Notes: a model not told the origin generated them from the letters alone. DNA of 64,000 nt from Patescibacteria group bacterium (GCA_018823045.1 JAHJIX010000016.1:2961-66960), one strand, 5' to 3'; positions 2,413 through 48,095 are shown, counted from the first letter of the stretch. Made by a program: numbers and translations.

Positions 2413-3324
2413 ATGGAATATTTAGAAAATAATAAATATGTCGTTCCAACAGTCGATACGATTGTGGTAAATGATGCTGATGAAGTGTTATTAGTATTGC
2501 GTCATAAAGAGCCGTCAAAAGGGAAGTGGGTATTACCTGGTGGGCGTATTGATGTTGAAGACATGAGTGCCCCTGTCGCTGCCGTACGTGAAGTACAAGA
2601 AGAAACGGGTCTTGATGTAGAGATTACTTCTTTTATGGGCGTATATGCTGATCCAACACGAGATAGTCGGTTTCATGCCGTGAGTACGGTGTATGTCGGT
2701 TCTGTTGTTGGTGGAAAAATTCAAGTGCAAGAAGGAGAAACAGACGCTGTACAATTTTTTTCATTAGATCAATTACCTGATATTGGTTTTGATCATAAAC
2801 ATATTATAGAAGAATATATTGCAGGGCGAGAAAAAGGATGTTTACCTGCATACGATGATCGTACATTATCTGTGTATGGAAAAGAATGGCAAGCTGAGGG
2901 GTATCAAGCAAAAGCAGAATATATTCATGTGGCAGTTGATACTATTGTGCGTAATACAGAAGGAAAGATTTTATGGACGTATCGGGCAAAACGATGGTGT
3001 ACAAATACCTGGATTTTACCTGGTGGTCATATGAAAGTAGGGGAAGATATTGCAGAAACCTCTGCTCGAGAAGTATGGGAAGAAGCTGGCGTGAAAATTA
3101 CATTTGATCGGGTACTTGCAACATTGTACGGGCCATATCGCAATCCGCATCATCCTGCATTAACCGTTTTATGTGTGGCAACCCTGACTGAAGAAGCGCC
3201 ATTTGCAGAAAATATTGAAGTATTAAAACGGCAATGGGCATCTATAGAAGAAACACCAGATCCTATAGGATTTGATTGTGAAAAAATGATGACATATTAT
3301 CAATTATATTTACGTTCAAACTAA
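2413..3324 (+). CDS. Tandem double-NUDIX-domain hydrolase
   Basis: Two Nudix boxes: LPGGRIDVEDMSAPVAAVREVQEETG and LPGGHMKVGEDIAETSAREVWEEAG. Confidence 0.75.
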   Translation: MEYLENNKYVVPTVDTIVVNDADEVLLVLRHKEPSKGKWVLPGGRIDVEDMSAPVAAVREVQEETGLDVEITSFMGVYADPTRDSRFHAVSTVYVGSVVGGKIQVQEGETDAVQFFSLDQLPDIGFDHKHIIEEYIAGREKGCLPAYDDRTLSVYGKEWQAEGYQAKAEYIHVAVDTIVRNTEGKILWTYRAKRWCTNTWILPGGHMKVGEDIAETSAREVWEEAGVKITFDRVLATLYGPYRNPHHPALTVLCVATLTEEAPFAENIEVLKRQWASIEETPDPIGFDCEKMMTYYQLYLRSN

Positions 3325-17621: not shown

Positions 17622-18230
17622 ATGAAAATAGATTTTCAGTTACCAACTGATGGAAAATATCATCAATATTGTATAAAGTGTAATTCTGAACATATTCATA
17701 AAATTATTAAGGATACTCGAACATATTATGAATGTGAAGATTGTAAAGACATATCTCCTCGTCTTATCGTTGTTGATCCAAAAATAGATTGTTGGGTAGA
17801 TGAAGACACAAAAGAATATTGGCATAAAAGTGTTGGAATCTTTGTGTTTAATGAAGACAACGAAGCATTGTTTTTTGAACGAGTTATGTATCCTTTTGTT
17901 TTTACTATTCCAGCGGGTCATCTTGATATAGGAGAAAAACCTGCTGAAGCAGTTAAAAGAGAGTTATTAGAAGAAACTGGTTTAAAAATAGATGCTGTAA
18001 AGTTTACTGTTCAAGAAAATATTATTGGTGATAAATGTTGGAGAGGTTCAGATAATCATATGTGGCATTTATATGTTGGAAAAATGAAAAAAACAAATAA
18101 TATCATATTAAATGATGAAGGAGTAAAAGCTACATGGTTGACATTAGAGCAAGCATTAAATGTTCCATTGCCTTATCCTGTTGAGTATTTTATCAAAAAA
18201 TATGGGAATTCATTATTTCAGGATGTATAA
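17622..18230 (+). CDS. Zn-ribbon-fused NUDIX hydrolase
   Basis: CIKCNSEH...CEDCKD four-Cys ribbon, then Nudix box GHLDIGEKPAEAVKRELLEETG. Confidence 0.7.
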   Translation: MKIDFQLPTDGKYHQYCIKCNSEHIHKIIKDTRTYYECEDCKDISPRLIVVDPKIDCWVDEDTKEYWHKSVGIFVFNEDNEALFFERVMYPFVFTIPAGHLDIGEKPAEAVKRELLEETGLKIDAVKFTVQENIIGDKCWRGSDNHMWHLYVGKMKKTNNIILNDEGVKATWLTLEQALNVPLPYPVEYFIKKYGNSLFQDV

Positions 18231-28432: not shown

Positions 28433-28888
28433 TTATTGATTATGTTTTTTATATGTCTCAACAACAGTCCGAACATTATCTGCAACGTTATCTGGCAATG
28501 CATCAATACCAAACCAATCCCATTCAATTGTCCTCTCTCCGGGTTCTACCTCATTGAGTCTTTTTGCAAGATAGTGAACTAAAAGAATCACTCCATTTGT
28601 TTTTGGATGTGGAATCATAATAGTATCAAGAGGGGAGAGAATCTCAATTTCTAAGCCTAATTCTTCCATCACCTCTCGTCTACAGGTATCTTCTAGTGGA
28701 AGGCTATAGTCATTTATTTTTCCACCTGGAATCATGAATTGTTTTTTCTCCAAACCATCTTTATCAAATTCACGATTAAGAAGAATCTTATTATCTTCTA
28801 TAATGACTGGCCCTACAGCAATAATAGATTGTTCTGGGATAAACATAGAGGCAATTGAGGTGATATTTACATAGTCGTAGTGTAGCAT
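28433..28888 (-). CDS. NUDIX hydrolase
   Basis: IPGGKINDYSLPLEDTCRREVMEELGLE Nudix box. Confidence 0.7.
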   Translation of the reverse strand: MLHYDYVNITSIASMFIPEQSIIAVGPVIIEDNKILLNREFDKDGLEKKQFMIPGGKINDYSLPLEDTCRREVMEELGLEIEILSPLDTIMIPHPKTNGVILLVHYLAKRLNEVEPGERTIEWDWFGIDALPDNVADNVRTVVETYKKHNQ

Positions 28889-34199: not shown

Positions 34200-35081
34200 T
34201 TACTCTCCAGTGACAATACATACGACAGCCCCATCCCAAGTCCAACCGGCTTGTACTGCTTTTTTAATTCCAACAAGTCCGAGAATTCCATTTGGTGAAA
34301 GGGTCATCTTTGTGGTTCTTTTAACCAGAGTAATCATGTCTTTAATTTCTTTATTTGTGACAACCCATCCACTACCATGTGTTTGGTTGATCGCAGAAAT
34401 AACTGATAATTTTCTATGTGCAACGCGATCACAAATTGCAGGGGCTACTGTCGTGCTTGTTGGCTCCACGTCTGTATCAAAGATACTTGCTATAGGAGAA
34501 CACGCGCTTGTTTGTACGATATGAATTTGAGGAACATGATTCATATCGGTAAATACTTCTGCAATTCCTTGTGCAGTTGTTCCTGATGATGTTGGAATAA
34601 ATATTGCTTGTAGGTCAGGAATTTTACTTAATTCTTGCCCTAAACTGTAATAACCACGTAGAGCCGTATCATCAGTTGACTGGCGTAAAGAAACTGCTTC
34701 ACCTTTTTTATCTTTTTGAAAAGCCATTTGTTTTGGGTTGTCTACCTGAGAGATATGAATGGAGTCAGAAATATATGCTTGTAGTCGTGTTAATTTATGT
34801 TTTGTAATATTTTTGCCAACTAAAATTTCAAGAGATATTGGTTTTTCTGGATTATTTTTATTATGATTTTCTACAGTGATTGCTGCTGCAAGCGCTGCAT
34901 TTCCTGATGATGAAATAACAAAATGACCAACGTTTTTTCGTTTATAATATTCCTTTATCATGAGTGGGATAGATCGTCCTTTGTGTGATCCATAGGAATG
35001 CTGGTCTTCTCGTTTGAGCCATAAGTCTTTTACACCGATAGTACGAGCCAGAAAGGGATATTGTTTTTGAACTGTTTTCAT
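34200..35081 (-). CDS. PLP-dependent enzyme of the tryptophan-synthase-beta superfamily (threonine synthase-like)
   Basis: LWLKREDQHSYGSHKGR resembles the PLP-lysine region of threonine synthase/PALP enzymes; Gly-rich SSGNAALAAA. Confidence 0.5.
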   Translation of the reverse strand: MKTVQKQYPFLARTIGVKDLWLKREDQHSYGSHKGRSIPLMIKEYYKRKNVGHFVISSSGNAALAAAITVENHNKNNPEKPISLEILVGKNITKHKLTRLQAYISDSIHISQVDNPKQMAFQKDKKGEAVSLRQSTDDTALRGYYSLGQELSKIPDLQAIFIPTSSGTTAQGIAEVFTDMNHVPQIHIVQTSACSPIASIFDTDVEPTSTTVAPAICDRVAHRKLSVISAINQTHGSGWVVTNKEIKDMITLVKRTTKMTLSPNGILGLVGIKKAVQAGWTWDGAVVCIVTGE

Positions 35082-35351: not shown

Positions 35352-36281
35352 CTAGTATATCTGGATTTTTTTGTTTACTTGTCTATGAGAACGAAGGACA
35401 AAAAAGAGTAATAAAACACAAAGGATAATAATTGGGTAACGTAGTTTATTGATGACAAAAGATATTGTCTGGCCTGCCGTGTATGGTTTTGCTTTTGTTA
35501 TGAGTATTTCTTTTTGTATGTTGTGGAGTTTCTTATTACTATCAAGAACATCAATATAGACCGTATATGTGCCTATAGGTAGATCAGTTGGAATATCGAC
35601 AAGTAGTGTGTGATATGTTTGCTCTGGGATGTGTTCTGTTGGAGTAATGACATGTTTTTCAAGAATGGTATGTCTGTCATCATAAATACGACTATATATT
35701 TTTTGTATTGCATTAGTATCATTTCCTGCATTTTCTATATAGAGTGCTAGGCGAATATTTCCTTGAATATTCCACCAAAAGAGTTCTTGTGTATCAATGG
35801 CTTCGGCAATATTGAGTTCATGAATATGGACTTTTTTGATTGAGTCAACAACATGTATGGCTATTTTTGCTTGTACAGATGTGAGGCTTTGTACACCATC
35901 AAGTATTCCTGTTTTTTTCGGGACAGGAATGGTCGTAATATTGAGGAGCCCTTTGTATGTTTGTATATTTGCATCTTCTGGTATGTGTAGTTGAATAGTA
36001 ATGTCTTTTTTTTCTTCTCCTGCATAAAAAGGGACAATATAATCAGTGATATTTTCAAAAGTAATCCAATTTTGTGTGAGTGGAAGGTTTAAATTAAGTT
36101 TAAAATATTCATCTGTTGTTTGTTCTTGGCGGATAATGCTAATAGTTAATGTTTCTGTTGTTCCCGGAAGTATTGTCGTTTCAATAACTGCAGGGCTTAT
36201 ACCTAAAGCAGATACAGAATGTACAAAAAAGAGACTAGAAAAAATAATGTTCAAGAAAAAGAATAAACTGTTTTTTTTCAT
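35352..36281 (-). CDS. Surface protein: N-terminal signal peptide, beta-rich ectodomain, C-terminal TM anchor
   Basis: MKKNSLFFFLNIIFSSLFFVHSVSA signal; C-terminal PIIILCVLLLFFVLRSHRQ. Confidence 0.45.
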   Translation of the reverse strand: MKKNSLFFFLNIIFSSLFFVHSVSALGISPAVIETTILPGTTETLTISIIRQEQTTDEYFKLNLNLPLTQNWITFENITDYIVPFYAGEEKKDITIQLHIPEDANIQTYKGLLNITTIPVPKKTGILDGVQSLTSVQAKIAIHVVDSIKKVHIHELNIAEAIDTQELFWWNIQGNIRLALYIENAGNDTNAIQKIYSRIYDDRHTILEKHVITPTEHIPEQTYHTLLVDIPTDLPIGTYTVYIDVLDSNKKLHNIQKEILITKAKPYTAGQTISFVINKLRYPIIILCVLLLFFVLRSHRQVNKKIQIY

Positions 36282-36290
36282 ATGAAAATA

Positions 36291-39200
36291 TTATGGCCAG
36301 GGTGTATCATTGATTGTTGCAGAATAGGTTGTAAATCCACTATACGTTCCAGCAGCCGTTGGCATAGGTATTGATAATCCCCACCAAAGAGTTGATGTGT
36401 TGTTTTGTGTGGAAGTGTTTTTGGGAATATCAAGCTCAAGCATCACAGGAGAATTTGTTAGTATTGTACTTGATGCAAAAGGAATTGATGATGTTGCATA
36501 TACGCGAGAACCAACAGGGATGCTGTGATTATTAGAGTTCATCGCTGTTCCAAATAATAATAGGTCAAGAGAAATATTTCCTGTGGAAGTTATTGTGAGT
36601 GTTTTATCAATTGGGTCATTTTTTTCTCCGACTGCGAGTGCACCAAAATTTGTGCTATCTGACACTGTAATAGCAAGAAGAGAAGACATGTCTGTCGTAT
36701 CAACGGGGCTAAACCCGCTGTGTGTTTGGCTTAGTGAATCATAGGCTTGAATCCATACACGCCAATATTCATTTGTCCAGGGTGTTCCAGCATCAGTTGG
36801 TTCAGCAAAAAATTGAATGTCAGCTGAGCAAGTTGCGGTACATGAATTTCCAGAACAGTTACTGAGTGAACATGAAAAAATTTCATAGCAGTTATTTTCG
36901 TCTGATGCACAATATTCTGCTCCACCAACACCTGATCGATACATTTTTGCACTGACAAAACTAATATCACTATATCCATCTGGGTCAGTAATGGTGGCTG
37001 TAGCAGAAACAGTAGTCGTTGTATTTTCTGTGAGTAAGATATGTTCATCGCCATTGAGTGAAATATTGCTTACCGTCGGTGATTCATTTGCTGGTGTGTA
37101 GGTGACTGTTGCATAGGTTGAGTAGAGTTGTGATGATGTTACAGGGGTTGTGTTATTCGTATTGACAAATTTAACACGTAAACCATCGAGTTGACTTTGG
37201 GTGAGAGATAAGCTAGAGAAGGTTGCACTATCCCAAGTGTTTGATGTGCTTACTGCGAGTTGTTGGGTTATCCCGTATTGTGTTGTTTCTGTGCTATCCC
37301 ATAATTCAACATCCCATTGCATGTTTGCATTACCATTGTTGTGGTAGGCAAAGACTTGTATTTCTGTTGCAGTGCCGACATTGCTTAGTGTTGTCATTTG
37401 TAGCAGAGTACTTTCTGTATCGTTACAAGTAATATAATCAGAAGTATCTGGAGTTGTTGGGAGTCGTGTCGCATCGTCAACAGTTGTATAATCACTTCCT
37501 CCGGGTGTTGGTGTACAAGATGATGTGCCATCTCCATCTGGGTCAATGGTGCCAACTGCATCAGAGGCAATATGCCATTGTCCTGATTCTTCAAATGTGC
37601 CAATAAATCGAGGGGTGGTTGTTGATATATATACATCATTAGAAGTACTGTCTAATTGAAATGGTCCTAATAAAAATAAATATGGACTAATATTTGGTGC
37701 ATCAAACGTATACGAAAGAATATAGCTATCACCAGCATGCCATGAAACGTCTGCACGTATTTCTGTACTATGACTATTTTGAGAAATAGTCAGTGGGGTA
37801 GAGGAGGTTGGACCAATTTGTTGTGGAATGAGTTCCATGTGTTTCACTGTAAAGCTTTGTGGCATTGGTTCAATAAATGTCCCTTCAAAATCTTCATTAA
37901 CGGTAATCGTTACTTCCATTGGATAATCAGCTGGTGGATAAATACGTGTTGGCCCAACACGAGAAATATCAAATGGCGTATATGATTTTACATCAAAAAA
38001 ATCAGTGATCATGGCTGTTGTGTCGAGATTGGTTAAGCGAATGCCATAACGTCCTTCGCTTGTTGGTGTGTACGTAGTAAAATAATCAGGGACATCAATA
38101 ACATTGTCTGGTCCACAAAGACCACTTGTTTGAATATTTGGTGTGCTCACATTGCCATTTGGTGCTGTGATTTCGAGTAACAGTTGTGCATCACAGAGTG
38201 TATGGCCATCTGCATTAAGTGCTGCCATGTGAATGTGTGCGGTATCTTTTGTGATATAAATAGATTTGTCAGTATTGACTGCAAGTACGCCAAAGGTAAA
38301 GTCTTCTTGGTGAATAACAATATCTTCTGCTTCATAAATGAGTACTTCAAGAGTATATGTTCCAGATGGTATTTCTCTTTTTTGTTGTTGAGGAATAGAG
38401 ACAGTAAATGTATTATTTGGGTATGGCACAATTTGAGGAATAATGTTGGTCATTTCTTGTTGTTCACTATTATAAATATGTGCTTCAATTCGGACTTCAT
38501 CAAGAGAAATACTTTGGCTGGGTTGTTTTTTTGTTGCATCATAATTAAAAATAAAAAGAGCCTCATCTTCAAGAGAAAAATCTTTTTGTGTTGAAATAAA
38601 TGAAACCACATTTTTTGCAGGGTCGCTTGTTTCTGCTTCCAGTTCAATCCAAATTGCGTCTAAAAAGAGCATGTTTTCTGGGAGTATTCCTTCTGTTGAG
38701 ATAGTCACACGAATTTCCATTTGTTGTAATTCTTGGGGTGTGGAGACCTGTTTGAGTGGATAAGAAAAATAATCATTATTGCTTGCATTTGATCTTGCCT
38801 CTTCTAATGATAGGGTAACAAGTTTTTTCCATGTGTTCTTTTTTTTGTATTCAATAGTGATTGTGCCTTCTGAAATTGCTTGATGCGCTAAAGAAAGCAT
38901 GATATATGGATTTGAAAATTCATCATGAAGATACGTGCTTGCTTTTTCTTGTATGGTAAAGTGAGATAGTTCTAAGGAAAGTTCTTGTTTTGGTTGTTTT
39001 TTCTCTTTTTTCTCTTTTTTCTCTTTTTTATCAGATTGAATTGTTGCGGAAGGACTTGCTGTCGGTGTGCTGCTTACAAATTCAAATGATTCTGTAGAAG
39101 TTGCTTGTTGTGTTTCTGCGCTAGTTACTGTTGGAGTCTCAATTGATTCTATTGGAAGATCTACGAGAATCTCTTCTGTTGTTGTTTCAATTATTTCTTC

Positions 39201-40034
39201 AGTCGGAGGAGCTTCTTCAATAGGAGAAATTTCTGGGATTGTTTCTTCAATGATAACTTCAGGCATTGGTTCTGGTTCGGGTGCTGGAGTTTCAATAGTT
39301 TCTTCTACAGCAGAAGCTTCTGGTTCAGGGGTTGGTGTTTCTACAGAGAGCGCTTCTTCTGTTGATTGTGCCCAGGCTTCTGAAATAGAAAAAAGTGAAA
39401 GAAACCATTGTTTGGTATTAAAAAATGATAAATCTCCTGATTCGCTTGTTTCTTCATTTTTTTGATTCTTTTCCTCCTTTTTTTCTTTTGTATTATCTTC
39501 AGGTGTTTCAACTTCTTCAATAATAACTTCAGGCGCTGGTTCATGAGCAGGTATTTCAAGTATTTCTTCATCTTCTTCGATTATGTCGTCCTCCTGTTCA
39601 GTTTCTTCTTCAATAATAGCTTCAATTATTTCTGTAGAGGTTACAATTTCTTTTGTTGTTGAGGGTGTTATAATATCTCCAACAAGTGGCAAGGTGACTG
39701 TTTCTTGAGGAGAGGTAAATTGAGGTACTGTAGGTGTATCTGTTTGTATTTGTGGTGTATTGCCTTCATTATGTGCAATAAACAAAGAGATGTCTGCTGT
39801 ATTTGGAAGGTCTATTTGTTTGAGTTGATCAAGATTATTCCAATCACCAGAAATAATTTGAGGAATTGCGGTGAGGGTAATTTCATCATGAGAAAATGAT
39901 AAGGTTGGAATGGTATAGCCAACAACAAAAAGAATTGCAATAGATATTACAATAAAAGAAATAGATAGATGTGATACCTTTTTTATCCAATTCATGCAGG
40001 TATTATAGCATGTTTTTTTCTTAATTTCCAACAA
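36291..40034 (-). CDS. Giant (1247 aa) membrane-anchored surface protein with an acidic/Pro/Thr-rich low-complexity stalk and C-terminal beta-rich domains
   Basis: N-terminal TM ISFIVISIAILFVVGY; EEIIEE/PEPE/KEKKEKKEKK low-complexity tracts; long S/T-rich repeats. Confidence 0.5.
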   Translation of the reverse strand: MLEIKKKTCYNTCMNWIKKVSHLSISFIVISIAILFVVGYTIPTLSFSHDEITLTAIPQIISGDWNNLDQLKQIDLPNTADISLFIAHNEGNTPQIQTDTPTVPQFTSPQETVTLPLVGDIITPSTTKEIVTSTEIIEAIIEEETEQEDDIIEEDEEILEIPAHEPAPEVIIEEVETPEDNTKEKKEEKNQKNEETSESGDLSFFNTKQWFLSLFSISEAWAQSTEEALSVETPTPEPEASAVEETIETPAPEPEPMPEVIIEETIPEISPIEEAPPTEEIIETTTEEILVDLPIESIETPTVTSAETQQATSTESFEFVSSTPTASPSATIQSDKKEKKEKKEKKQPKQELSLELSHFTIQEKASTYLHDEFSNPYIMLSLAHQAISEGTITIEYKKKNTWKKLVTLSLEEARSNASNNDYFSYPLKQVSTPQELQQMEIRVTISTEGILPENMLFLDAIWIELEAETSDPAKNVVSFISTQKDFSLEDEALFIFNYDATKKQPSQSISLDEVRIEAHIYNSEQQEMTNIIPQIVPYPNNTFTVSIPQQQKREIPSGTYTLEVLIYEAEDIVIHQEDFTFGVLAVNTDKSIYITKDTAHIHMAALNADGHTLCDAQLLLEITAPNGNVSTPNIQTSGLCGPDNVIDVPDYFTTYTPTSEGRYGIRLTNLDTTAMITDFFDVKSYTPFDISRVGPTRIYPPADYPMEVTITVNEDFEGTFIEPMPQSFTVKHMELIPQQIGPTSSTPLTISQNSHSTEIRADVSWHAGDSYILSYTFDAPNISPYLFLLGPFQLDSTSNDVYISTTTPRFIGTFEESGQWHIASDAVGTIDPDGDGTSSCTPTPGGSDYTTVDDATRLPTTPDTSDYITCNDTESTLLQMTTLSNVGTATEIQVFAYHNNGNANMQWDVELWDSTETTQYGITQQLAVSTSNTWDSATFSSLSLTQSQLDGLRVKFVNTNNTTPVTSSQLYSTYATVTYTPANESPTVSNISLNGDEHILLTENTTTTVSATATITDPDGYSDISFVSAKMYRSGVGGAEYCASDENNCYEIFSCSLSNCSGNSCTATCSADIQFFAEPTDAGTPWTNEYWRVWIQAYDSLSQTHSGFSPVDTTDMSSLLAITVSDSTNFGALAVGEKNDPIDKTLTITSTGNISLDLLLFGTAMNSNNHSIPVGSRVYATSSIPFASSTILTNSPVMLELDIPKNTSTQNNTSTLWWGLSIPMPTAAGTYSGFTTYSATINDTPWP

Positions 40035-40244: not shown

Positions 40245-41618
40245 TTATTTCATTTGCTCAATAAGTTCTTCAATCATACCGCGGAAACTATGAGAACCAA
40301 GAAATGCTACGACATCTCCGTTGTTTGTGTTGTTTTTTATATGTTGGATAAGGTCATCATCTTTTGTAATATGAAGAACGTGTGGGTGGCTTTTTTTAAT
40401 AACATGAGCTAAATGTTCACCATCAAATGCTGTTGGTTTATTTGGATCCTGTTTGATCCGTGTTAAGCGTGGAATAATAACTTCGTCTGCATGTGCAAAA
40501 GCATCTGTGTAGAGTGGAGCAGATTCTGCTTGGCGATTGCCAGTATTTGGCTCAAAGATAGTAATAATTTTTCCATCATAGACTTTACGAATACTTTGAA
40601 GAATTGCCTCTGCTTTTGATGGAGAGTGTGCAATGTCATCAATAATCGTGATTGATCCTTCGTAGCGTTTTTCACTTCGGCGTTTCAGTCCTTTAAATTC
40701 TTTCATCGCAGCAATAATGATTTCAGGATCAATACCTAAACGGAGTGCCATTGCAAAACATCCTGTTGCGTTATCTGCCATATATTCACCAAGCATGGGA
40801 ATTTCAATATGATATTGTTCTTCTTTGTGTAAAATATCAAAAGAAACGACATCTTTTGTTTGTACGACATTAGTGTATTTAAAGTCATTTCCTTCTTTTT
40901 TTCCGTAGGTCCATGTCTCTGTATGCGCTACTGAAGAAACAGTTTCGCGTACTTTTTCTGATAACACTAAAAATCCAGATAGTGGTATGGAATCAAGTAA
41001 GTTTTTAAATGCTTGGACATATGTTGCTTCTGTTGGATAAATATCTGCATGATCCCAAACAACAGAGGTGAGCAGTAGATGAGTTGGGGAGTAGTGAGCA
41101 AATTTTGGACGTATGTCCCAGCGGGCAGTTTTGTATTCATCTCCCTCAAGAATGCTGACGGTACTATCACTCATGTGAGCTGCATCCATGGCGTTACCGG
41201 GTATACCGCCAAACATATAGCTAGGATCTTTTTTTGCGTAAAGCAAGATCCACGATAGTAGGGTAGTACTCGTGGTTTTCCCATAGGTGCCGGCACAAAC
41301 AACAGAAGTGTCTTTTATGAGGTATTCATGAATAAATTCAGGGTAAGAAAGGTAAGGAATATTTTTTTCTTGTAGAGTAAGCCATTCAGGATTTTTGGAT
41401 CCTGCAACATTACCAACAACAACAAGATCTGGAGTACCCATTTTTTTTGGATGCCATCCTGGATAGTAGGCAATGCCCGCTTGTTTGAGGTAAGTTGACA
41501 CAGGTGGATAAAATCCCTTGTCAGAACCAGTAACTGCCCATCCTTTTTTGTGACATGCAATAGCGAGAGCCGACATTGCAACGCCGCAAATTCCTATAAA
41601 GTGGATGTGTTTATTCAT
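40245..41618 (-). CDS. Mur ligase family enzyme, Mpl/MurC-like (UDP-N-acetylmuramate:peptide or L-Ala ligase)
   Basis: HIHFIGICGVAMSALA ... VTGSDKGFYPPVSTYLKQAGI (Mpl/MurC N-terminal pattern), GTYGKTTSTTL P-loop. Confidence 0.65.
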   Translation of the reverse strand: MNKHIHFIGICGVAMSALAIACHKKGWAVTGSDKGFYPPVSTYLKQAGIAYYPGWHPKKMGTPDLVVVGNVAGSKNPEWLTLQEKNIPYLSYPEFIHEYLIKDTSVVCAGTYGKTTSTTLLSWILLYAKKDPSYMFGGIPGNAMDAAHMSDSTVSILEGDEYKTARWDIRPKFAHYSPTHLLLTSVVWDHADIYPTEATYVQAFKNLLDSIPLSGFLVLSEKVRETVSSVAHTETWTYGKKEGNDFKYTNVVQTKDVVSFDILHKEEQYHIEIPMLGEYMADNATGCFAMALRLGIDPEIIIAAMKEFKGLKRRSEKRYEGSITIIDDIAHSPSKAEAILQSIRKVYDGKIITIFEPNTGNRQAESAPLYTDAFAHADEVIIPRLTRIKQDPNKPTAFDGEHLAHVIKKSHPHVLHITKDDDLIQHIKNNTNNGDVVAFLGSHSFRGMIEELIEQMK

Positions 41619-41763
41619 AATATAATATTATCTAGTCTATCTGCTTATAGATCTATGTTATTTTTCATATTCTCATGTAATTTGATTCATGTAGTTTTGG
41701 TGTGGCAACAGTTCAAAATAAAATAGATATATAAGCAAATTAATTATCTTGAGTATTCAAATA

Positions 41764-42492
41764 TCATACTGTAGATACTATTTCTTTGAGTACATCAAGA
41801 TTCGTTTGCCACTGTGCGCCATCAAACCATTCAAGTCCTGCAAATTGTAGTTTATAATGATCTGTTGGGCGTTGTACTGAACCAACATACATATAGTGTT
41901 TGCCTTGTTTTTTTGCATACTCAATAGCACGGATCATCATACCCATGCCAATATTTTTATTTGGGAATTCAAGGTTATAAAATGGATATGAGTAATGCAG
42001 TATATTTTCATTTTCATAGCAGATTGTATAACCAACTGGAAGACTTTTTGTTTCTTCAATCGCGTCTGGATCAGTATCGATATGGCAGTGGCAAAATTCT
42101 GCGGCAAGACCATCTTCTGTAATACGATATACAAATAAACGATTAAAGTTTGTTTTATTAGTATTGCTCAGTACTTCTTTCATTTTGTTTGCACTAAATG
42201 TACCTATGCCAAATTTTTTATCATAAAAATCTTTGCCCATTTTCCCAAGGCTCCAATGGTAGTCTGTATATGGAATGTCTTTTATTTTCATGACAATATC
42301 TTCTGTCTTACGTAATATACGTCTATTTTCACTTGAGAGTTCAAATTGTTCAAGATCAATACGAAGTAAGCGAGTTTGAGTCATGATTCCTTTTCCTATG
42401 CGACCAAAATAATAGCCTTCATTATATTTTTCTGTTATGTTTTTTGCAGAAAAATCGTTGAGTGTGATTTGTTTCCAGTTAAGATATGACAT
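41764..42492 (-). CDS. Arginyl/leucyl-tRNA--protein transferase family protein (ATE_C / Bpt-like GNAT fold)
   Basis: ILHYSYPFYNLEF ... GKHYMYVGSVQRPTDHYKLQFAGLEWFDGAQW matches the ATE C-terminal consensus (yYLGYwi..KM.YK..F.P.E.L...W); lacks the N-terminal Cys motif. Confidence 0.45.
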   Translation of the reverse strand: MSYLNWKQITLNDFSAKNITEKYNEGYYFGRIGKGIMTQTRLLRIDLEQFELSSENRRILRKTEDIVMKIKDIPYTDYHWSLGKMGKDFYDKKFGIGTFSANKMKEVLSNTNKTNFNRLFVYRITEDGLAAEFCHCHIDTDPDAIEETKSLPVGYTICYENENILHYSYPFYNLEFPNKNIGMGMMIRAIEYAKKQGKHYMYVGSVQRPTDHYKLQFAGLEWFDGAQWQTNLDVLKEIVSTV

Positions 42493-42495
42493 AGC

Positions 42496-43665
42496 TTAGT
42501 AGAGTGCGATCCAAAGACCAAGTAAAACAAAGCCTGCATGAATAATCCAAAAACGCATCACTGTTTTTTCTTCTGTCCATCCACGGAGTTCAAAATGATG
42601 GTGAATTGGGGCCATTTTAAAAATACGACGACCCAAAATATATCGGCCAGCAATTTGTATAATAACTGTGCTGATTTCTATATAAAAGAGAAAGCCAATC
42701 AGTGGCAGTACGAGCATCTGATTAATGACAATGGCATTTATGGCAAGCAGTGCTCCGAGCCCTAAGGAACCCACATCTCCCATCTGAAAGCGGGCCGGTT
42801 TAATATTAAAATAGGTATAGGTAATCAGTGCACCTGCGGTTGTTGCGTTTAAATAGGTCATTTCTTCATATCCACCGATCCACGAGAGAATCATCAGTGC
42901 TGCAAAGGTCACAATAAGAGATCCTCCGGCAAGACCATCCATACCATCAGCAATGTTGACTGCGTTTGCGGTAAACATGACACAGAGAATAATAATTGGA
43001 ATAATCCACCAACCAATGTTGATATAGCCATCAAATGGAATATGAATTTCACGCCAGCTCTCGCCAAGTTTATAGTAGACCCACCATGCGGTAATACCCC
43101 CAGCTAAAAATTGCATGAATAAGCGTTCATGCACATGAAGACCTTTTCCAGGGTGAGACCCAAGCCAGAGTGATGCACGTTTAACTATTGCCCAAGGAAG
43201 GGTGAGGGCAAGCCAAATACGTTGTTTTTTATCTTTGTGAACGCGAATAAGTTTGAGAACTTGCTTGATTTTTCTGACCCGGCGTTTTTTCCCGCGGACA
43301 TTATTCATAAAATCATCAACTCCACCAAGGAGGGCTGCAAGTAGCATGACCCCAATTGGGACCCAAGTAAAGCTGCGTTCCCAGTTAAATAAGTAGGTGA
43401 GAACGGCAACCGTGATAATTACAACCAGCCCTCCCATGATTGGAACGCCGTCTTTACTTTTTCTTGCGCCGAGCGCAAGGGTGGGGTCAAACTCGTTTTT
43501 TCGAGTAATATTGTATTTATAGAGAAATTTAATCAGTAGTGGTGCCCATAAAAAGGCAATTCCAGCTGAAATAATGGCAAATCCAATAGCATCTCGGAGT
43601 ATGTTTAATTGTTCAGGTATAATAAGCATATAGCATAGTATAGCATAAAAAGACCAGTAAATCAA
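42496..43665 (-). CDS. mraY: Phospho-N-acetylmuramoyl-pentapeptide transferase
   Basis: NAVNIADGMDGLAGG and PIHHHFELRGW hallmarks; 10 or more TM helices; an extra basic cytoplasmic loop (KKRRVRKIKQVLK). Confidence 0.8.
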   Translation of the reverse strand: MIYWSFYAILCYMLIIPEQLNILRDAIGFAIISAGIAFLWAPLLIKFLYKYNITRKNEFDPTLALGARKSKDGVPIMGGLVVIITVAVLTYLFNWERSFTWVPIGVMLLAALLGGVDDFMNNVRGKKRRVRKIKQVLKLIRVHKDKKQRIWLALTLPWAIVKRASLWLGSHPGKGLHVHERLFMQFLAGGITAWWVYYKLGESWREIHIPFDGYINIGWWIIPIIILCVMFTANAVNIADGMDGLAGGSLIVTFAALMILSWIGGYEEMTYLNATTAGALITYTYFNIKPARFQMGDVGSLGLGALLAINAIVINQMLVLPLIGFLFYIEISTVIIQIAGRYILGRRIFKMAPIHHHFELRGWTEEKTVMRFWIIHAGFVLLGLWIALY

Positions 43666-43756
43666 TGTTTTTTGCTCTTATTGAGTGTTTTAGGGTATAC
43701 TAGAGAAAATATACAATTATTTAATGTGATATTTTATTAAGAAATAACTTTTCTAT

Positions 43757-44152
43757 ATGAATGAACAAAGAAGTAAAAATAATAAACAATGGTTTGCAAA
43801 AAATGGGCGTTGGTTTATTCCTCTTATTATTATAGGACCAATGGTATTAATATCTTTGGTCATGAGTTTGATAAAATCATCTGGGGCATATGAAATTGCA
43901 ATGGAGGTGGTCCATGATTCTCCGATTATAGAAGGACTGCTTGGTGAATCAGTAAAAGATGGATTTTTTGTTTCTGGGAGTATTGAAGTGAATGGGAGTT
44001 CGGGCACTGCTGATTTAAGTGCTTCTTTGAAAGGACAAAAAGATAGCGCAAAGCTTTATATTCGTGCTGTAAAATCGGAGGATGAGTGGAATATTATTTC
44101 ATTAAAAATGAGACCAAAGTCTAGTGGAGAAATAGTTGTTTTGATAGAGTAA
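43757..44152 (+). CDS. Hypothetical single-TM membrane protein
   Basis: TM FIPLIIIGPMVLISLVMSLI, then a small soluble domain. Confidence 0.4.
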   Translation: MNEQRSKNNKQWFAKNGRWFIPLIIIGPMVLISLVMSLIKSSGAYEIAMEVVHDSPIIEGLLGESVKDGFFVSGSIEVNGSSGTADLSASLKGQKDSAKLYIRAVKSEDEWNIISLKMRPKSSGEIVVLIE

Positions 44153-44228
44153 TGTATTGAAACAAAGACATCGAATTAATAAAAAAAGTAAGGACATAAC
44201 TTACTTTTTTAATAGTTCTATTTATTAT

Positions 44229-45020
44229 TTATTTGTTCAACCTTCCAATCTTTACACTTTTCGCCGTCTCAACTCGCCATAATGTTTCATTGTCAGGGCT
44301 CGTTGTTTTTTCTCGTTCAGTCCAATCTTGTTTTTCTAAAGGATCCTTGATATTTTTTATATCGATTGTTCCACGACGCACGCCATGGTGTATTCCATCA
44401 GTGCTCCATTGGAGTGAATGTACATAATAAATTTTTTTTGGGATATTTTTATGGTATTCTACCGATTCAATAAGGAGTACATGATTGAGGTCATGATTTT
44501 TCCCAGTATGCATCAGGAGAATAAGATCACCGGCTTGTACATTTTTGAGTGCTATTTCTTTTGTATTTTTATCGTGGTTAAGTGTTGCCACATTTGTATT
44601 TTCGGCAGGACGAAATGATGCAATAAGTCGACGGATTGGATTTTTAATTGGGTAGTGCATTGTTTTTTTAAGCGGAGGGCGTTTATGCGCTTTCATTTCT
44701 TCATTCATCACATGATAAACAAAACCAGAACACTCAATACCAATATTTAAGTTCGTCACAAATGTGATTACTTCTTTTTTTGATAATAAAGATAAATCTG
44801 TTTTTTTTCTAAGGGCCATTAATATGATTTCATCTTCAATTTCTTGCGGGTCTCCTTTTCCTATATTTACTCGAAGTCCACCACGGACCTTCATTTTTTT
44901 ATTATTAAAGTAAGGGGTTGCAATTGTGTGTTGTCCTACAGAAATATTGAGGTATTTTGTAATAAGTTGTTGTGCCGGTAAAGATAATGTTGATTTTTTC
45001 ATAGAAGATTTATGCTCCAA
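44229..45020 (-). CDS. Hypothetical protein with an NlpC/P60-like Cys/His motif
   Basis: IECSGFVYHVM (compare the NlpC/P60 DCSGFV catalytic Cys) and a downstream NHVLLIESVEYH; weak. Confidence 0.3.
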   Translation of the reverse strand: MEHKSSMKKSTLSLPAQQLITKYLNISVGQHTIATPYFNNKKMKVRGGLRVNIGKGDPQEIEDEIILMALRKKTDLSLLSKKEVITFVTNLNIGIECSGFVYHVMNEEMKAHKRPPLKKTMHYPIKNPIRRLIASFRPAENTNVATLNHDKNTKEIALKNVQAGDLILLMHTGKNHDLNHVLLIESVEYHKNIPKKIYYVHSLQWSTDGIHHGVRRGTIDIKNIKDPLEKQDWTEREKTTSPDNETLWRVETAKSVKIGRLNK

Positions 45021-46230
45021 TTATGGTAGCAATACGTTTGCCATGGTCATTAAATATATTATGTTCTGTCATAATTTGCTCTGAAGATTGAATACGAAGT
45101 GCATCGCTGCCAGGTTTTGTGTTTTCATAAGGAAATACCGTCAGACCTTCGCTTTCAAGTTGTTGACTAAGTCGTTCAAGATGTCTCATTGGGCTATTTT
45201 GTTTATTTCTTAAAATGATTTGTGCTCCATTTTTAATAGGGATTAAATCTGTTTGTGTAACTGAAATTTCAAGAAGAGCAAGAAGATGGGCTTCTCCAAT
45301 AGTAACACCATCTTTGTGTTGTTTAGTTTGTAGATATGATTCAAATGTTGTTGATGCCGCTTGTCGTGCATTTATTTCAATAAGGAATAATTTGCCTGTG
45401 TTTTGTTCTATCATAACATCAATACCAAATAATCCACGCCAACCAGAGTTACGAAGTTGTCCACCAATTGCATGAACCATTGTTGAATATTCTTTGCGTT
45501 GCTGTTCATCAAGGAGTGTGTGTGCAACGCCCCAATCATTTCCAATCGTTGCGAATGCTTGATCAGTAAATGGGAAAAGACCTGTAATTTGATAATTAAT
45601 ATTACCAACAATAATGTCATCTTTTGATACAACATTATTGCTGGTAATCATTGCACCATCAATAACAGTACTAATGCGTACCGGCCGATGAGGAAATTTT
45701 TGTTGGAGTTCTTGTAAGGTTTCTTTGCTATGAATCAATAGTGTTCCGCTTCCTGTATGTGAGCGATTAAATTGTAAAATAAATGGTGTGTCTGCCCATA
45801 CAATATTTGAAAGCGTTTCAATGCGATGCGGAGGCAAATAACTTGCAAGATTATCTAACCATTCTACTTGTGTAATTTTTTCTTCAATACTATTGCTGAG
45901 TGTTGCCGTTGGGTTTAACAGAATCCACCCTTCTTTTGTACAAATAGATTCAATTTTTTTTGTATTTTTAAATACAAGAATATGTGGTAACGTTTGGGTG
46001 TTAATTTTTGTGATGACTTGTGGATGCTCCAGTAATTGCCACGTATCGAGTGCTGTTTCTGATTCAATTAAAATAATATTTGGGTATTTTTTTGCAAGTA
46101 TTTTGGCAAAAGGAGTATTATTTGTAATAATAGAAACAAAAGGCATTGCTTTTGCCCAGAGTGCTCGCTCAAGATCACGGCTTACATAGAATATGTGTTT
46201 GTCTGAAATATCTGTTAATTTTTTATTCAT
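45010..46230 (-). CDS. ATP-grasp ligase, D-Ala--D-Ala ligase-like C-terminal domain with a roughly 150-aa N-terminal extension
   Basis: GWRGLFGIDVMIEQNTGKLFLIEINARQAAST resembles the Ddl C-terminal G..G.IDVM....G..YLLE.NT.PG. Confidence 0.5.
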   Translation of the reverse strand: MNKKLTDISDKHIFYVSRDLERALWAKAMPFVSIITNNTPFAKILAKKYPNIILIESETALDTWQLLEHPQVITKINTQTLPHILVFKNTKKIESICTKEGWILLNPTATLSNSIEEKITQVEWLDNLASYLPPHRIETLSNIVWADTPFILQFNRSHTGSGTLLIHSKETLQELQQKFPHRPVRISTVIDGAMITSNNVVSKDDIIVGNINYQITGLFPFTDQAFATIGNDWGVAHTLLDEQQRKEYSTMVHAIGGQLRNSGWRGLFGIDVMIEQNTGKLFLIEINARQAASTTFESYLQTKQHKDGVTIGEAHLLALLEISVTQTDLIPIKNGAQIILRNKQNSPMRHLERLSQQLESEGLTVFPYENTKPGSDALRIQSSEQIMTEHNIFNDHGKRIATIIGA

Positions 46231-46478
46231 AGATATTTAAATTGTACTTAATATAGAGCAAAAAGTCCAGTCTATTATACTATGGATTAAGAACGAAAAC
46301 AATTTTTTGGACTGAAGTTGTCTTTATTTTTAGTGGAATATATGACTATATTGATTGATAATTTGCTTATATGTTTTGTTGTGGATAAGCAAATATACAT
46401 TAAGACAAAGGTGGATATTTGTGATATTTAATGGTATGATATAAATATACAATTTCTATTTTTTTATTACATAGATGT

Positions 46479-47160
46479 ATGACTATAAAAAGTAAATTTA
46501 TTATTAGTTTTTTGCTGATTTTATTTACACTTGGGTTTAGTGGTATATCAATTTTAGAGGAATAGAAAGTATCACTGAAAATTTGAATAGTATTAATGAA
46601 GAAACTGTACCAGTGATGATGGCTTTGCACGAGTTAACATTTTTTCTTTATATGTGGTTTCTGCAACAATAGAATTACTTATTATTGAAGATCATATCGA
46701 GGCTATTGAATATGAGCAAGAAGAAGTAGAAGAAGCATAAAGAGGAATTTAATGAGGGGTTATTAACATATGAACATTTAGGGAATACGTATTTCCTAGG
46801 AGAAAATGATCATAAAAATAATATTAAAAAGGAGTGGGAGATTCTTGTTGATATTGCTGATAATATGTTTATTGCAAAAACAAATTGCAAAATTTAGTAA
46901 AGCAATAGAAGTAATTTCTGCTGGAAAATTTAATATAAAAACAGATATTACTTCATAAAGATGAGTTTGGAGTGTTAGCAAAAGCATTTGATAACATGAT
47001 AGAAAAATTAAAAGAGTCACTCAAAAGTCTTGAAGAGCGTGGTGTATTGATTAAAGAACGATTAGATGAAATTGAATCAAAAAATAAAAAATTAGAAAGT
47101 TTTAATAAAATAATGGTTGAATTAAAAGAGGAACTAAAAGCTTTAAAAAAGAAAAAATAG
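46479..47160 (+). pseudogene. Decayed HAMP-domain sensor gene (MCP/histidine-kinase-like) broken by frameshifts and stops
   Basis: Fragments in different frames: MTIKSKFIISFLLILFTLGFSGISILEE* (TM1); ...RFLLILLIICLLQKQIAKFSKAIEVISAGKFNIKTDITS* (TM2 into HAMP); then KDEFGVLAKAFDNMIEKLKESLKSLEE in the +1 frame (HAMP DE.G.LA.AFN.M signature). Confidence 0.6.
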
Positions 47161-47168
47161 TGTTGTGT

Positions 47169-48095
47169 ATGATGTATAAAGAACTTAAACAATTTGGTGC
47201 GGTAAAAGTAAATGTATCTTTGGCAAAATATCTAACGATGAAGGTAGGAGGCATTGCACAATGTATTGTGATTGTTGAGGAATTGGATAAGTTAATAGAT
47301 TTATTAACTTATCTTGAGGGTACTGATATACAACCCCTTTTAATAGGTGGAGGAAGTAATATGATTCTTTCAGATGATGAATTTGAAGGAGTGGCTATTA
47401 TAGTAAAAGTAGCAAACTGTGAGATTGAAGGGGACCGTGTTATTGCAGACGCTGGGTGCTCGACAGTAGAAGTTGCTCGCAAAAGTTTTGCAGCAGGTCT
47501 CACTGGTTTTGAGTGGGGGGTTGGCGTTCCTGGGACAATTGGAGGAGCTGTTCGTGGAAATGCTGGAGCTATGGGGGGAGATATGAGCCAATCGATTGAA
47601 AAAGTTTTGGTGTATCAAGATGGAGAAACAAAAGAATTATCAGGAAAAGATTGTGCATTTGCATATCGAGATAGCCTTTTTAAACATGACTCAAGTATTA
47701 TTTTGCGCGTCTGGTTACAGTTGCAAAAAACTGAGGCAAAAGATGGTATGAAAAAAGCGCTTGAGCATATTCAATATAGAAATAAAACACAACCACAGGG
47801 GTATGCATCAAGTGGCTGTATTTTTAAAAATATATCTATTGAAGGTGAAAAAGAGGGTGTTCCAAAAGAGTTTATAGAAAAAGGAATTATTCCTGCCGGA
47901 TGGTTGATTGAGCAAGTGGGTTTAAAAGGAAAGCAAATTGGGAATGCGCAAATAAGTGAAAAACATGGAAATTTTATTGTAAATGTTGGCGGTGCTTGTG
48001 CACAAGATATTTTTGATTTAATTGATGAAGCCAAAGAAAAAGTGTTTGAACAGTTTGGGTTTAAGTTAGAAGAAGAAATTCGTATTGTTCGTTGA
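47169..48095 (+). CDS. murB: UDP-N-acetylenolpyruvoylglucosamine reductase
   Basis: FAD-binding LLIGGGSNMI, MurB fold, C-terminal CIFKN; start taken at the ATG at 47169. Confidence 0.8.
   Translation: MMYKELKQFGAVKVNVSLAKYLTMKVGGIAQCIVIVEELDKLIDLLTYLEGTDIQPLLIGGGSNMILSDDEFEGVAIIVKVANCEIEGDRVIADAGCSTVEVARKSFAAGLTGFEWGVGVPGTIGGAVRGNAGAMGGDMSQSIEKVLVYQDGETKELSGKDCAFAYRDSLFKHDSSIILRVWLQLQKTEAKDGMKKALEHIQYRNKTQPQGYASSGCIFKNISIEGEKEGVPKEFIEKGIIPAGWLIEQVGLKGKQIGNAQISEKHGNFIVNVGGACAQDIFDLIDEAKEKVFEQFGFKLEEEIRIVR

Follow-up and report, generated by a model that had tools for sequence, protein, structure and literature searches.

The window examined here is the whole stretch of 64,000 nt that was analysed from a Patescibacteria group bacterium (GCA_018823045.1 JAHJIX010000016.1:2961-66960; GC content ~36%). 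At positions 40245-46230 it carries a cluster in which a gene for a 242-aa protein related to the arginyl/leucyl-tRNA-protein transferases (ATE/Bpt family; hereafter the ATE-like protein) lies between mraY and a Mur ligase gene. The 242-aa protein has an identical NCBI entry, labelled "Patescibacteria group bacterium", and its nearest relatives are those of Magasanikbacteria. The original prediction, made from the sequence alone, had proposed that this arrangement reflects a tRNA-dependent addition of an amino acid to a peptidoglycan precursor by a non-Fem enzyme. The five minus-strand open reading frames (ORFs) on which it was built were confirmed in position and order. In the direction of transcription they encode an ATP-grasp protein, a P60-like protein, MraY, the ATE-like protein and the Mur ligase, with a plus-strand Coa1-family gene lying before mraY and a PALP gene further downstream:

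45010-46230, minus strand: ATP-grasp gene, 406 aa (Pfam ATP-grasp_3, 25.9 bits)
44229-45020, minus strand: NlpC/P60-like cysteine hydrolase gene, 263 aa, overlapping the ATP-grasp gene by 11 nt (NLPC_P60, 19.2 bits; cut-off 23)
43757-44152, plus strand: gene for a small membrane protein of the Coa1 family (PF08695, 46.6 bits)
42496-43665, minus strand: mraY, 389 aa (Glycos_transf_4, 97.7 bits; TIGR00445, 179 bits, cut-off 192; motif PIHHHFELRGW)
41764-42492, minus strand: ATE-like gene, 242 aa, starting 3 nt past the mraY stop
40245-41618, minus strand: Mur ligase gene, a MurC/Mpl-type UDP-N-acetylmuramic acid (UDP-MurNAc) ligase, 457 aa, with all three Mur ligase domains
34200-35081, minus strand: gene for a PALP-fold pyridoxal phosphate enzyme, 293 aa

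The cluster is a conserved wall-precursor operon of Patescibacteria, of the Magasanikbacteria/Paceibacteria type, which consists of the ATP-grasp protein, the P60-like hydrolase, MraY, the ATE-like protein and the MurC-type ligase, followed by PALP. The Coa1-family gene is a local insertion outside this module, since the gap between the P60-like gene and mraY is at most 100 nt in most related loci.

The AlphaFold (AF2) model of the 242-aa protein, built from the family alignment, has a predicted local distance difference test score (pLDDT) of 92.7 and a predicted template-modelling score (pTM) of 0.89, and consists of a single GNAT domain and a small N-domain. A Foldseek comparison with the PDB gave 72 matches at E <= 1e-3. 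All 50 matches listed are aminoacyl-tRNA-dependent transferases, namely alanyl- and lysyl-phosphatidylglycerol synthases, human and yeast ATE1, Weissella FemX, the E. coli L/F-transferase and the peptide synthase Sba18. Among these, ATE1 had the best template-modelling (TM) scores (0.59-0.63 normalised to the query, probability 1.00), as compared to 0.45-0.48 for FemX and 0.43-0.47 for the aminoacyl-phosphatidylglycerol synthases (aaPGS), while the best E-values were those of the alanyl (A-PGS, E 1e-6) and lysyl (L-PGS) enzymes.

At the sequence level, Pfam ATE_C aligns with residues 162-222 (22.9 bits, cut-off 25; E 1.4e-4), and seven NCBIfam arginyltransferase models match, with a best E-value of 2.7e-10 across residues 43-230 and a top score of 40 bits against a cut-off of 170. 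In the 242-aa protein no match was found to ATE_N (PF04376), nor to FemAB (PF02388) at E <= 0.1. Precomputed PF04377 matches are present on many homologues; moreover, the distant member P0447 scores 41.2 bits with ATE_C and, used as a tblastn query, retrieves genes annotated as Bpt in Sinorhizobium, Acinetobacter and Ralstonia. Overall, the relationship to ATE exceeds chance, judged from the model, its Foldseek matches and this tblastn result. Homologues number >1,400 proteins in a 90%-clustered collection and, in a 50%-representative library, 478 clusters at E < 1e-3 and 85 at E < 1e-30; 48 columns are invariant across 28 family members whose mutual identity is only 50-67%. Databases label the homologues "hypothetical", "arginyltransferase" or "leucyl-tRNA-protein transferase". 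One distant member in the representative library, P0505 (809 aa), is fused to a PPDK_N/phosphoenolpyruvate-utilising module (an ATP-grasp-like phosphotransferase).

The pair Y213-K214 is invariant in the 28 family members and aligns with a YK in the Bpt of both Sinorhizobium and Acinetobacter. An alignment with two Bpt sequences keeps, besides this pair, YxYLG, G182, E221, W228 and the basic helix SSENRRILRK, conserved at residues 54-62. In klAte1, Tyr303-Lys304 are essential for catalysis and match F304-K305 of FemX; the catalytic lysine is common to Ate1, FemX (K305) and the aaPGS enzymes, and the basic helix of Ate1 binds tRNA (PMC9351520). In contrast to Bpt/ATE1, the 242-aa protein has neither the zinc-finger cysteines nor the GFRRSG motif. 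The ATE_N zinc finger has four cysteines (PMC9351520); throughout the ATE-like family, the Cys-bearing segments that ATE_N has in the Bpt of Sinorhizobium and of Acinetobacter are either missing or free of Cys. Where Bpt reads GFRRSQNIAYRP, the family has GY-----YFGRI; the missing GFRRSG (GxRRSG) holds the arginine, R80 of klAte1, that is required for recognising the acidic N-terminal residue. Moreover, a register-dependent alignment places an invariant Ala at the position of the Glu with which Ate1 binds the side chain of arginine (a Gln in Bpt), and arginine would thus be an unlikely donor. The neighbouring residues are Met, Met and Tyr/Ser, and the donor pocket looks small and hydrophobic.

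The 242-aa protein thus resembles Bpt/ATE1 in its size class (that of Bpt), its GNAT C-domain, the Tyr-Lys pair, the YxYLG and YK..F..E motifs and the basic helix that would hold tRNA. The gene neighbours differ: the canonical bpt of Acinetobacter adjoins aat and has no mur genes beside it, whereas ATE-like genes have mur genes as neighbours. Given that the fold and the catalytic residues are kept while the acid-recognition motif and the zinc finger are lost, the 242-aa protein is a divergent, Cys-less and compact offshoot of the Bpt/ATE lineage. Judged from its sequence and model, it has very probably remained a tRNA-dependent aminoacyl transferase, with a changed acceptor.

With FemX, FemABX and MurM, the ATE-like protein shares an aminoacyl-tRNA-dependent GNAT fold, the same catalytic lysine after an aromatic residue and a peptidoglycan-synthesis gene setting, and the role that we propose for it is the same. 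FemX comprises two GNAT domains and a coiled-coil, whereas the ATE-like protein has one GNAT domain, no coiled-coil and ~100 residues fewer. To our knowledge, Fem genes have not been seen fused to MurC, and no family other than Fem/MurM is known to carry out tRNA-dependent steps of wall synthesis.

When one genome per GTDB species was scanned, at least 555 species genomes proved to encode an ATE-like relative, and the best 80 loci were taken with 10-kb flanks; the counts that follow are of those loci, among the 80, whose contig reaches far enough. MraY is encoded directly upstream of the ATE-like gene in 74 of 74 loci, and in 69 of 69 the ligase gene lies within 1.7 kb downstream of it or is fused to it. 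The ATP-grasp gene is found upstream of mraY in 55 of 61 loci and the PALP gene downstream of the ligase gene in 62 of 63. Orthologues share 48-56% identity for the ATE-like protein and 44-63% for the ligase. In about half of the loci, unrelated genes (GNAT, methyltransferase, GIY-YIG or another ATP-grasp) separate the ATE-like and ligase genes, while in the remaining loci these two overlap by 4 nt or sit at most 100 nt apart. The outer flanks vary between lineages. The informative carrier labels are Magasanikbacteria, Paceibacterota, Taylorbacteria and Parcubacteria. Many public metagenome-assembled genomes with the operon (L007, L009, L010 and others) bear the label "uncultured Gammaproteobacteria", "Arenimonas", "Udaeobacter" or "Kapabacteria", which are evident taxonomic mislabels.

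In-frame fusions of an N-terminal ATE-like domain to a C-terminal ligase occur in three of the 80 genomes (L012, L038 and L043), with differing short linkers. A search with one of them revealed nine further full-length fusion clusters (658-747 aa, 46-57% identical), some of which were seen on up to five contigs of independent sources, so that at least 12 distinct fusion proteins are known. In a poorly resolved neighbour-joining tree built from the ATE domains, the fusions occupy ~7 scattered places, corresponding to ~7 state changes. The distant subfamilies, with their E-values to the family profile, have the following gene contexts:

P0392, profile E 3.5e-59: upstream of lysS
P0419, profile E 7e-43: MurE, ATE-like, ligase
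P0447, profile E 6e-29: no mur neighbour
P0472, profile E 2e-23: ligase then ATE-like, the genes overlapping
P0486, profile E 2e-21: ligase then ATE-like
P0507, profile E 9.5e-19: no mur neighbour

Among the individual loci, L091 shows the order MurE-ATE-ligase, and L092 and L101 show the reversed order, ligase-ATE, in which the two genes overlap. Since the linkage is held in every usable locus, recurs in at least 12 fusions and reappears as reversed-order adjacency in distant subfamilies, the association of the ATE-like gene with mraY and the Mur ligase gene is not accidental; the synteny first noticed in one genome is conserved in its relatives. Moreover, the fusions and the adjacency in either gene order indicate that the MurC/Mpl-type ligase is the specific and repeated partner of the ATE-like protein. 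The P0392-subfamily gene lies directly upstream of lysS, encoding a bona fide lysine-tRNA ligase (L099:6240-8568; L100:320-2660), an adjacency that could be a hint at the donor amino acid or a coincidence.

A survey of natural Mur chimeras, from which unidentified species were excluded, describes MurE-MurF, MurC-Ddl, MurC-MurB, MurG-MurC and MurD-FtsW, and the ATE-like::ligase combination is not among them (PMC10214165). As in those chimeras, a wall-synthesis enzyme is here joined to a MurC-type ligase, which presumably serves co-regulation or the formation of a complex, but the partner is a predicted tRNA-dependent transferase.

The original prediction had placed this chemistry in an organism with a pared-down Mur pathway, a view that the relatives do not support. 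In L031, which has the same architecture as the window, MurE is encoded 6 kb away on the same contig (L031:17007-18284; TIGR01085, 334.7 bits, cut-off 257.3). A MurD-like ligase is encoded beside the PALP gene in 15 loci, and FtsI-(HAD)-MurF stands directly upstream of MraY-ATE-ligase in three. Homologues of MurF number in the thousands, at 65-70% identity, and many of them are labelled Magasanikbacteria. On two large Magasanikbacteria-type contigs the gene order is HPF-sulfatase-DXS-ATPase-radical SAM (rSAM)-FtsI-MurF; six ATE loci have the same HPF/sulfatase/DXS/rSAM flank ahead of MurB and the cluster, and MurF and FtsI are therefore probably encoded 10-12 kb from the cluster in those six. 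Within 10 kb of any of the loci, neither a second MurC-type ligase nor a Ddl, MurG or FtsW was found. Comparing the longest-contig values of the ATE, MurF and ligase hit lists gave no match that would place these genes on one contig. Because MurD, MurE and MurF exist in relatives, the parsimonious view is that the ligase of the cluster is the genome's MurC.

The arginine of the DNPR motif marks MurE enzymes that add meso-diaminopimelic acid (mDAP). The MurE of L031 and a MurE fragment of L091 (L091:2-415) have EDPY/EDTY where E. coli has DNPR, which makes plausible a Lys/Orn-type (non-mDAP) stem whose position 3 could carry a branch.

Given the conserved linkage and the aminoacyl-tRNA transferase fold, together with the fusions, a non-Fem, tRNA-dependent transfer in precursor synthesis remains the best reading of the cluster. 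More precisely, we favour, at a probability of roughly 0.55, a Fem-analogous aminoacyl transfer onto a peptidoglycan precursor that is coupled to the ligase and MraY. We infer the following for donor, acceptor and product. The ATE-like protein would take an aminoacyl group from a charged tRNA and pass it to a free amine of the precursor, the likeliest acceptor being the amine in the side chain of the diamino acid at position 3 (Lys/Orn-type stem) of a UDP- or lipid-linked muropeptide. Physically associated with the MurC-type ligase and MraY, it would be the functional counterpart of FemX/MurM, and the ATP-grasp/P60 pair might add or trim a further residue. Known branches are built by tRNA-dependent Fem enzymes (L-amino acids, Gly) or by ATP-grasp ligases such as Aslfm (D-amino acids), and, by analogy, both types of branch-building enzyme would be present in the operon. 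An aminoacyl-tRNA gives an activated carboxyl to an amine. A tRNA-dependent addition of residue 1 straight onto UDP-MurNAc was rejected because neither UDP-MurNAc nor UDP-MurNAc-L-Ala offers an amine as acceptor.

If this is true, a second lineage, descended from N-degron transferases, was recruited to peptidoglycan synthesis, and uncultured ultra-small bacteria carry it in no fewer than 555 species genomes. It would be an undescribed feature of wall chemistry in Patescibacteria and a case of a protein N-terminus modifier re-purposed for small-molecule or cell-wall chemistry. The database labels "arginyltransferase" and "Mpl", probably wrong for these proteins, would be corrected, and the enzyme pair, natural fusions included, could be cloned for testing. 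Literature searches found no paper on the ATE-like family, its synteny or its ligase fusions.

Several observations weigh against a Fem-like role. The predicted kinship with ATE/Bpt is borne out by the fold, but not to the level of the curated cut-offs, under which all the profile scores of the ATE-like protein fall; likewise, a search of PDB sequences with the family profile found no ATE1 and just one GNAT protein, at E 0.04. The modelled ATE-like protein has no counterpart to the double-GNAT body with which FemX binds UDP-MurNAc-pentapeptide. The closest association is with the pathway's first ligase, whose product has no free amine, and not with MurE or MurF, and the distant subfamilies P0447 and P0507 do not adjoin mur genes. 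Clusters of the dcw (division and cell wall) type also keep genes unrelated to wall chemistry, such as rsmH, and synteny alone is therefore no proof of a wall role. Finally, fused Mur enzymes need not act in consecutive steps (PMC10214165).

The choice of partner would be explained differently by a main-chain or salvage route, which we consider rather unlikely. Here the ATE-like protein would add an N-terminal residue (e.g., L-Ala from Ala-tRNA) to a free peptide, and a Mpl-like ligase would couple the product to UDP-MurNAc; the peptide, for example gamma-D-Glu-diamino acid, would be scavenged (from a host) or made by the ATP-grasp enzyme, giving a two-enzyme route that bypasses the MurC/MurD chemistry. 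A peptide with a new free N-terminus would be the very substrate of a Mpl-type ligase, and such a route would explain why the partner is always the ligase, in either order, and why the two are fused. NlpC/P60 hydrolases typically cleave gamma-D-Glu-diamino acid bonds, which would suit such a peptide. Patescibacteria, moreover, lack amino-acid biosynthesis (PMC9530719).

The ligase itself, whose N-terminal domain is of the MurC/Mpl type, gives a divided answer. In pairwise comparisons it is nearer to Mpl, with 33% identity and 212 bits to E. coli Mpl versus 27% and 119 bits to MurC, and with 175 and 149 bits to the Mpl structures 3hn7 and 3eag versus 141 bits to the best MurC in the PDB; its JGI label is also Mpl. 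The NCBIfam models, however, slightly favour MurC: murC (TIGR01082) scores 268 bits (cut-off 335) and mpl (TIGR01081) 257 bits (cut-off 389), and the ligase of the distant-subfamily locus L101 scores 227 versus 194 bits. An insertion shared with Mpl was ruled out as a Mpl signature, since the Gram-positive-type MurC 9ir5 has this segment too, which takes a further point from the salvage route. In an alignment with H. influenzae MurC, of which we take Y346, H348, H376, R377 and R380 to be the L-Ala site, H348 and R380 are kept and Y346, H376 and R377 are replaced by I, N and T, respectively. The retention of R380, presumably the binder of the L-Ala carboxylate, is likewise a point against the salvage route. 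Two further points count against salvage: the MurE, MurD-like ligase and MurF of the relatives would be redundant if the peptide were preassembled, and the acid-recognising arginine motif of ATE/Bpt has been lost.

We regard it as improbable that the ATE-like protein is an N-degron-type enzyme, which would modify protein N-termini in the manner of Bpt and hitch-hike in a stable dcw-like operon. Its sole named sequence relatives are indeed arginyl/leucyl-tRNA protein transferases, whose names the databases give to its homologues, and both the habit of dcw clusters of keeping unrelated genes and the subfamilies P0447 and P0507 would fit. The four zinc-finger cysteines and the GFRRSG motif with the arginine equivalent to klAte1 R80 are, however, missing from the family, no aat neighbour was found, unlike for the Acinetobacter bpt, and the repeated independent ligase fusions with adjacency in both orders are hard to square with hitch-hiking. 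An aaPGS/MprF-like transfer to another envelope acceptor, be it phosphatidylglycerol, a teichoic-acid-like polymer or a polyprenyl-linked glycan, is very unlikely: the top Foldseek E-values to A-PGS and to L-PGS, the position of the P0392 subfamily upstream of lysS, reminiscent of the MprF-LysRS fusion LysX, and the adjacency to the membrane enzyme MraY would favour it, but the ATE-like protein has no transmembrane or flippase domain, its fusion partner is a soluble nucleotide-sugar ligase, and its TM score is higher to ATE1 (0.63) than to aaPGS.

The MraY of this lineage carries a strongly basic insertion of ~65 aa directly after the catalytic DD motif (43096-43305 in the window, residues ~121-190), with the consensus KRRSRKLxQVLxLIRVHKxW...GSHPGKGVHVHEKL. 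The insertion is kept in 9 of 9 relatives aligned and absent in E. coli, whose periplasmic hairpin the MraY of this lineage does not have. The ligase, the transferase or tRNA could dock there.

The ATP-grasp protein had been described as Ddl-like, a likeness that holds at the superfamily level and not beyond it. ATP-grasp_3 matches 25 of 26 orthologues and Dala_Dala_lig_C only two of 26, weakly; the window protein gave no match to the Dala_Dala_lig_N or Dala_Dala_lig_C profiles, and hhalign against E. coli DdlB gave a probability of 66% over the ATP-binding core only. The protein was therefore rejected as the genome's Ddl for lack of specific similarity, and on its sequence it is a generic, divergent ATP-grasp amide ligase and not a Ddl orthologue. 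Comparisons with the PDB, both as a single sequence and as a profile, gave nothing useful, an AF2 model built without an alignment reached a pLDDT of 33.7, and the gene context of rhizobial "biotin carboxylase" (PRK06524-like) relatives was uninformative. By analogy, it can be likened to the D-aspartate ligase Aslfm, another ATP-grasp ligase in a wall-precursor setting.

In the NlpC/P60-like protein of the adjacent gene, C97 (the Cys of CSG) and H180 do not vary among 25 orthologues, and conservation of H201 is at least 90%; the score with NLPC_P60 stays under the cut-off. No signal peptide is evident in this protein. ATP-grasp::P60-like fusions of 628-690 aa occur in four genomes (L009:6567-8453, L015:3296-5257, L047:5930-7960 and L080:6550-8622), which suggests a synthetase/amidase pair working on the same bond. 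A similar pairing is known from the glutathionylspermidine synthetase/amidase (GspSA), in which a Cys-His amidase from the NlpC/P60-CHAP superfamily accompanies an ATP-grasp enzyme or is fused to it; the domain order here, ATP-grasp then P60, is, as we take it, the reverse of that in GspSA.

The PALP enzyme has only distant threonine synthase/dehydratase/SbnA-like matches and no sequence match in the PDB, and it might be the source of an unusual or D-amino acid used in the wall. A PALP gene is also found at L031:13917-14834. In related loci (L001:13276-13440, L003:14147-14311 and L005:13098-13271) a conserved LysW-like zinc-ribbon protein of 54-57 aa is encoded on the opposite strand between the ligase and PALP genes. 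By analogy, this protein together with the ATP-grasp enzyme recalls the amino-group carrier systems (LysW/LysX).

Divergent from the cluster lies a further gene of the pathway, which is in the same relative position in 44 related loci:

47160-48095, plus strand: murB (NF010480, 276 bits; cut-off 259)

No further mur, ddl, ftsW, femX or clpS genes were found among the window ORFs scanned with Pfam. The 64-kb window contains no tRNA genes or Rfam elements, and in a promoter/terminator scan promoter-like sites were no commoner than chance. The divergent ATP-grasp and murB genes are separated by a 930-bp AT-rich intergenic region (46231-47159), within which a 62-aa coiled-coil ORF (46972-47160) ends at the murB start. 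Two genes fill the interval between the ligase and PALP genes of the window (35352-40034), one for a surface-type protein of 1247 aa that is rich in Thr, Ser and Glu, the other for a secreted or membrane protein of 309 aa. Neither has an assigned family, the 309-aa protein after a scan; most relatives have instead a NUDIX gene and a small zinc-ribbon gene in this interval. A NUDIX gene also follows the ligase gene in several related loci, and the window itself holds at least four NUDIX hydrolase genes, an unusually large number (1863-2411, 2413-3324, 17622-18230 and 28433-28888).

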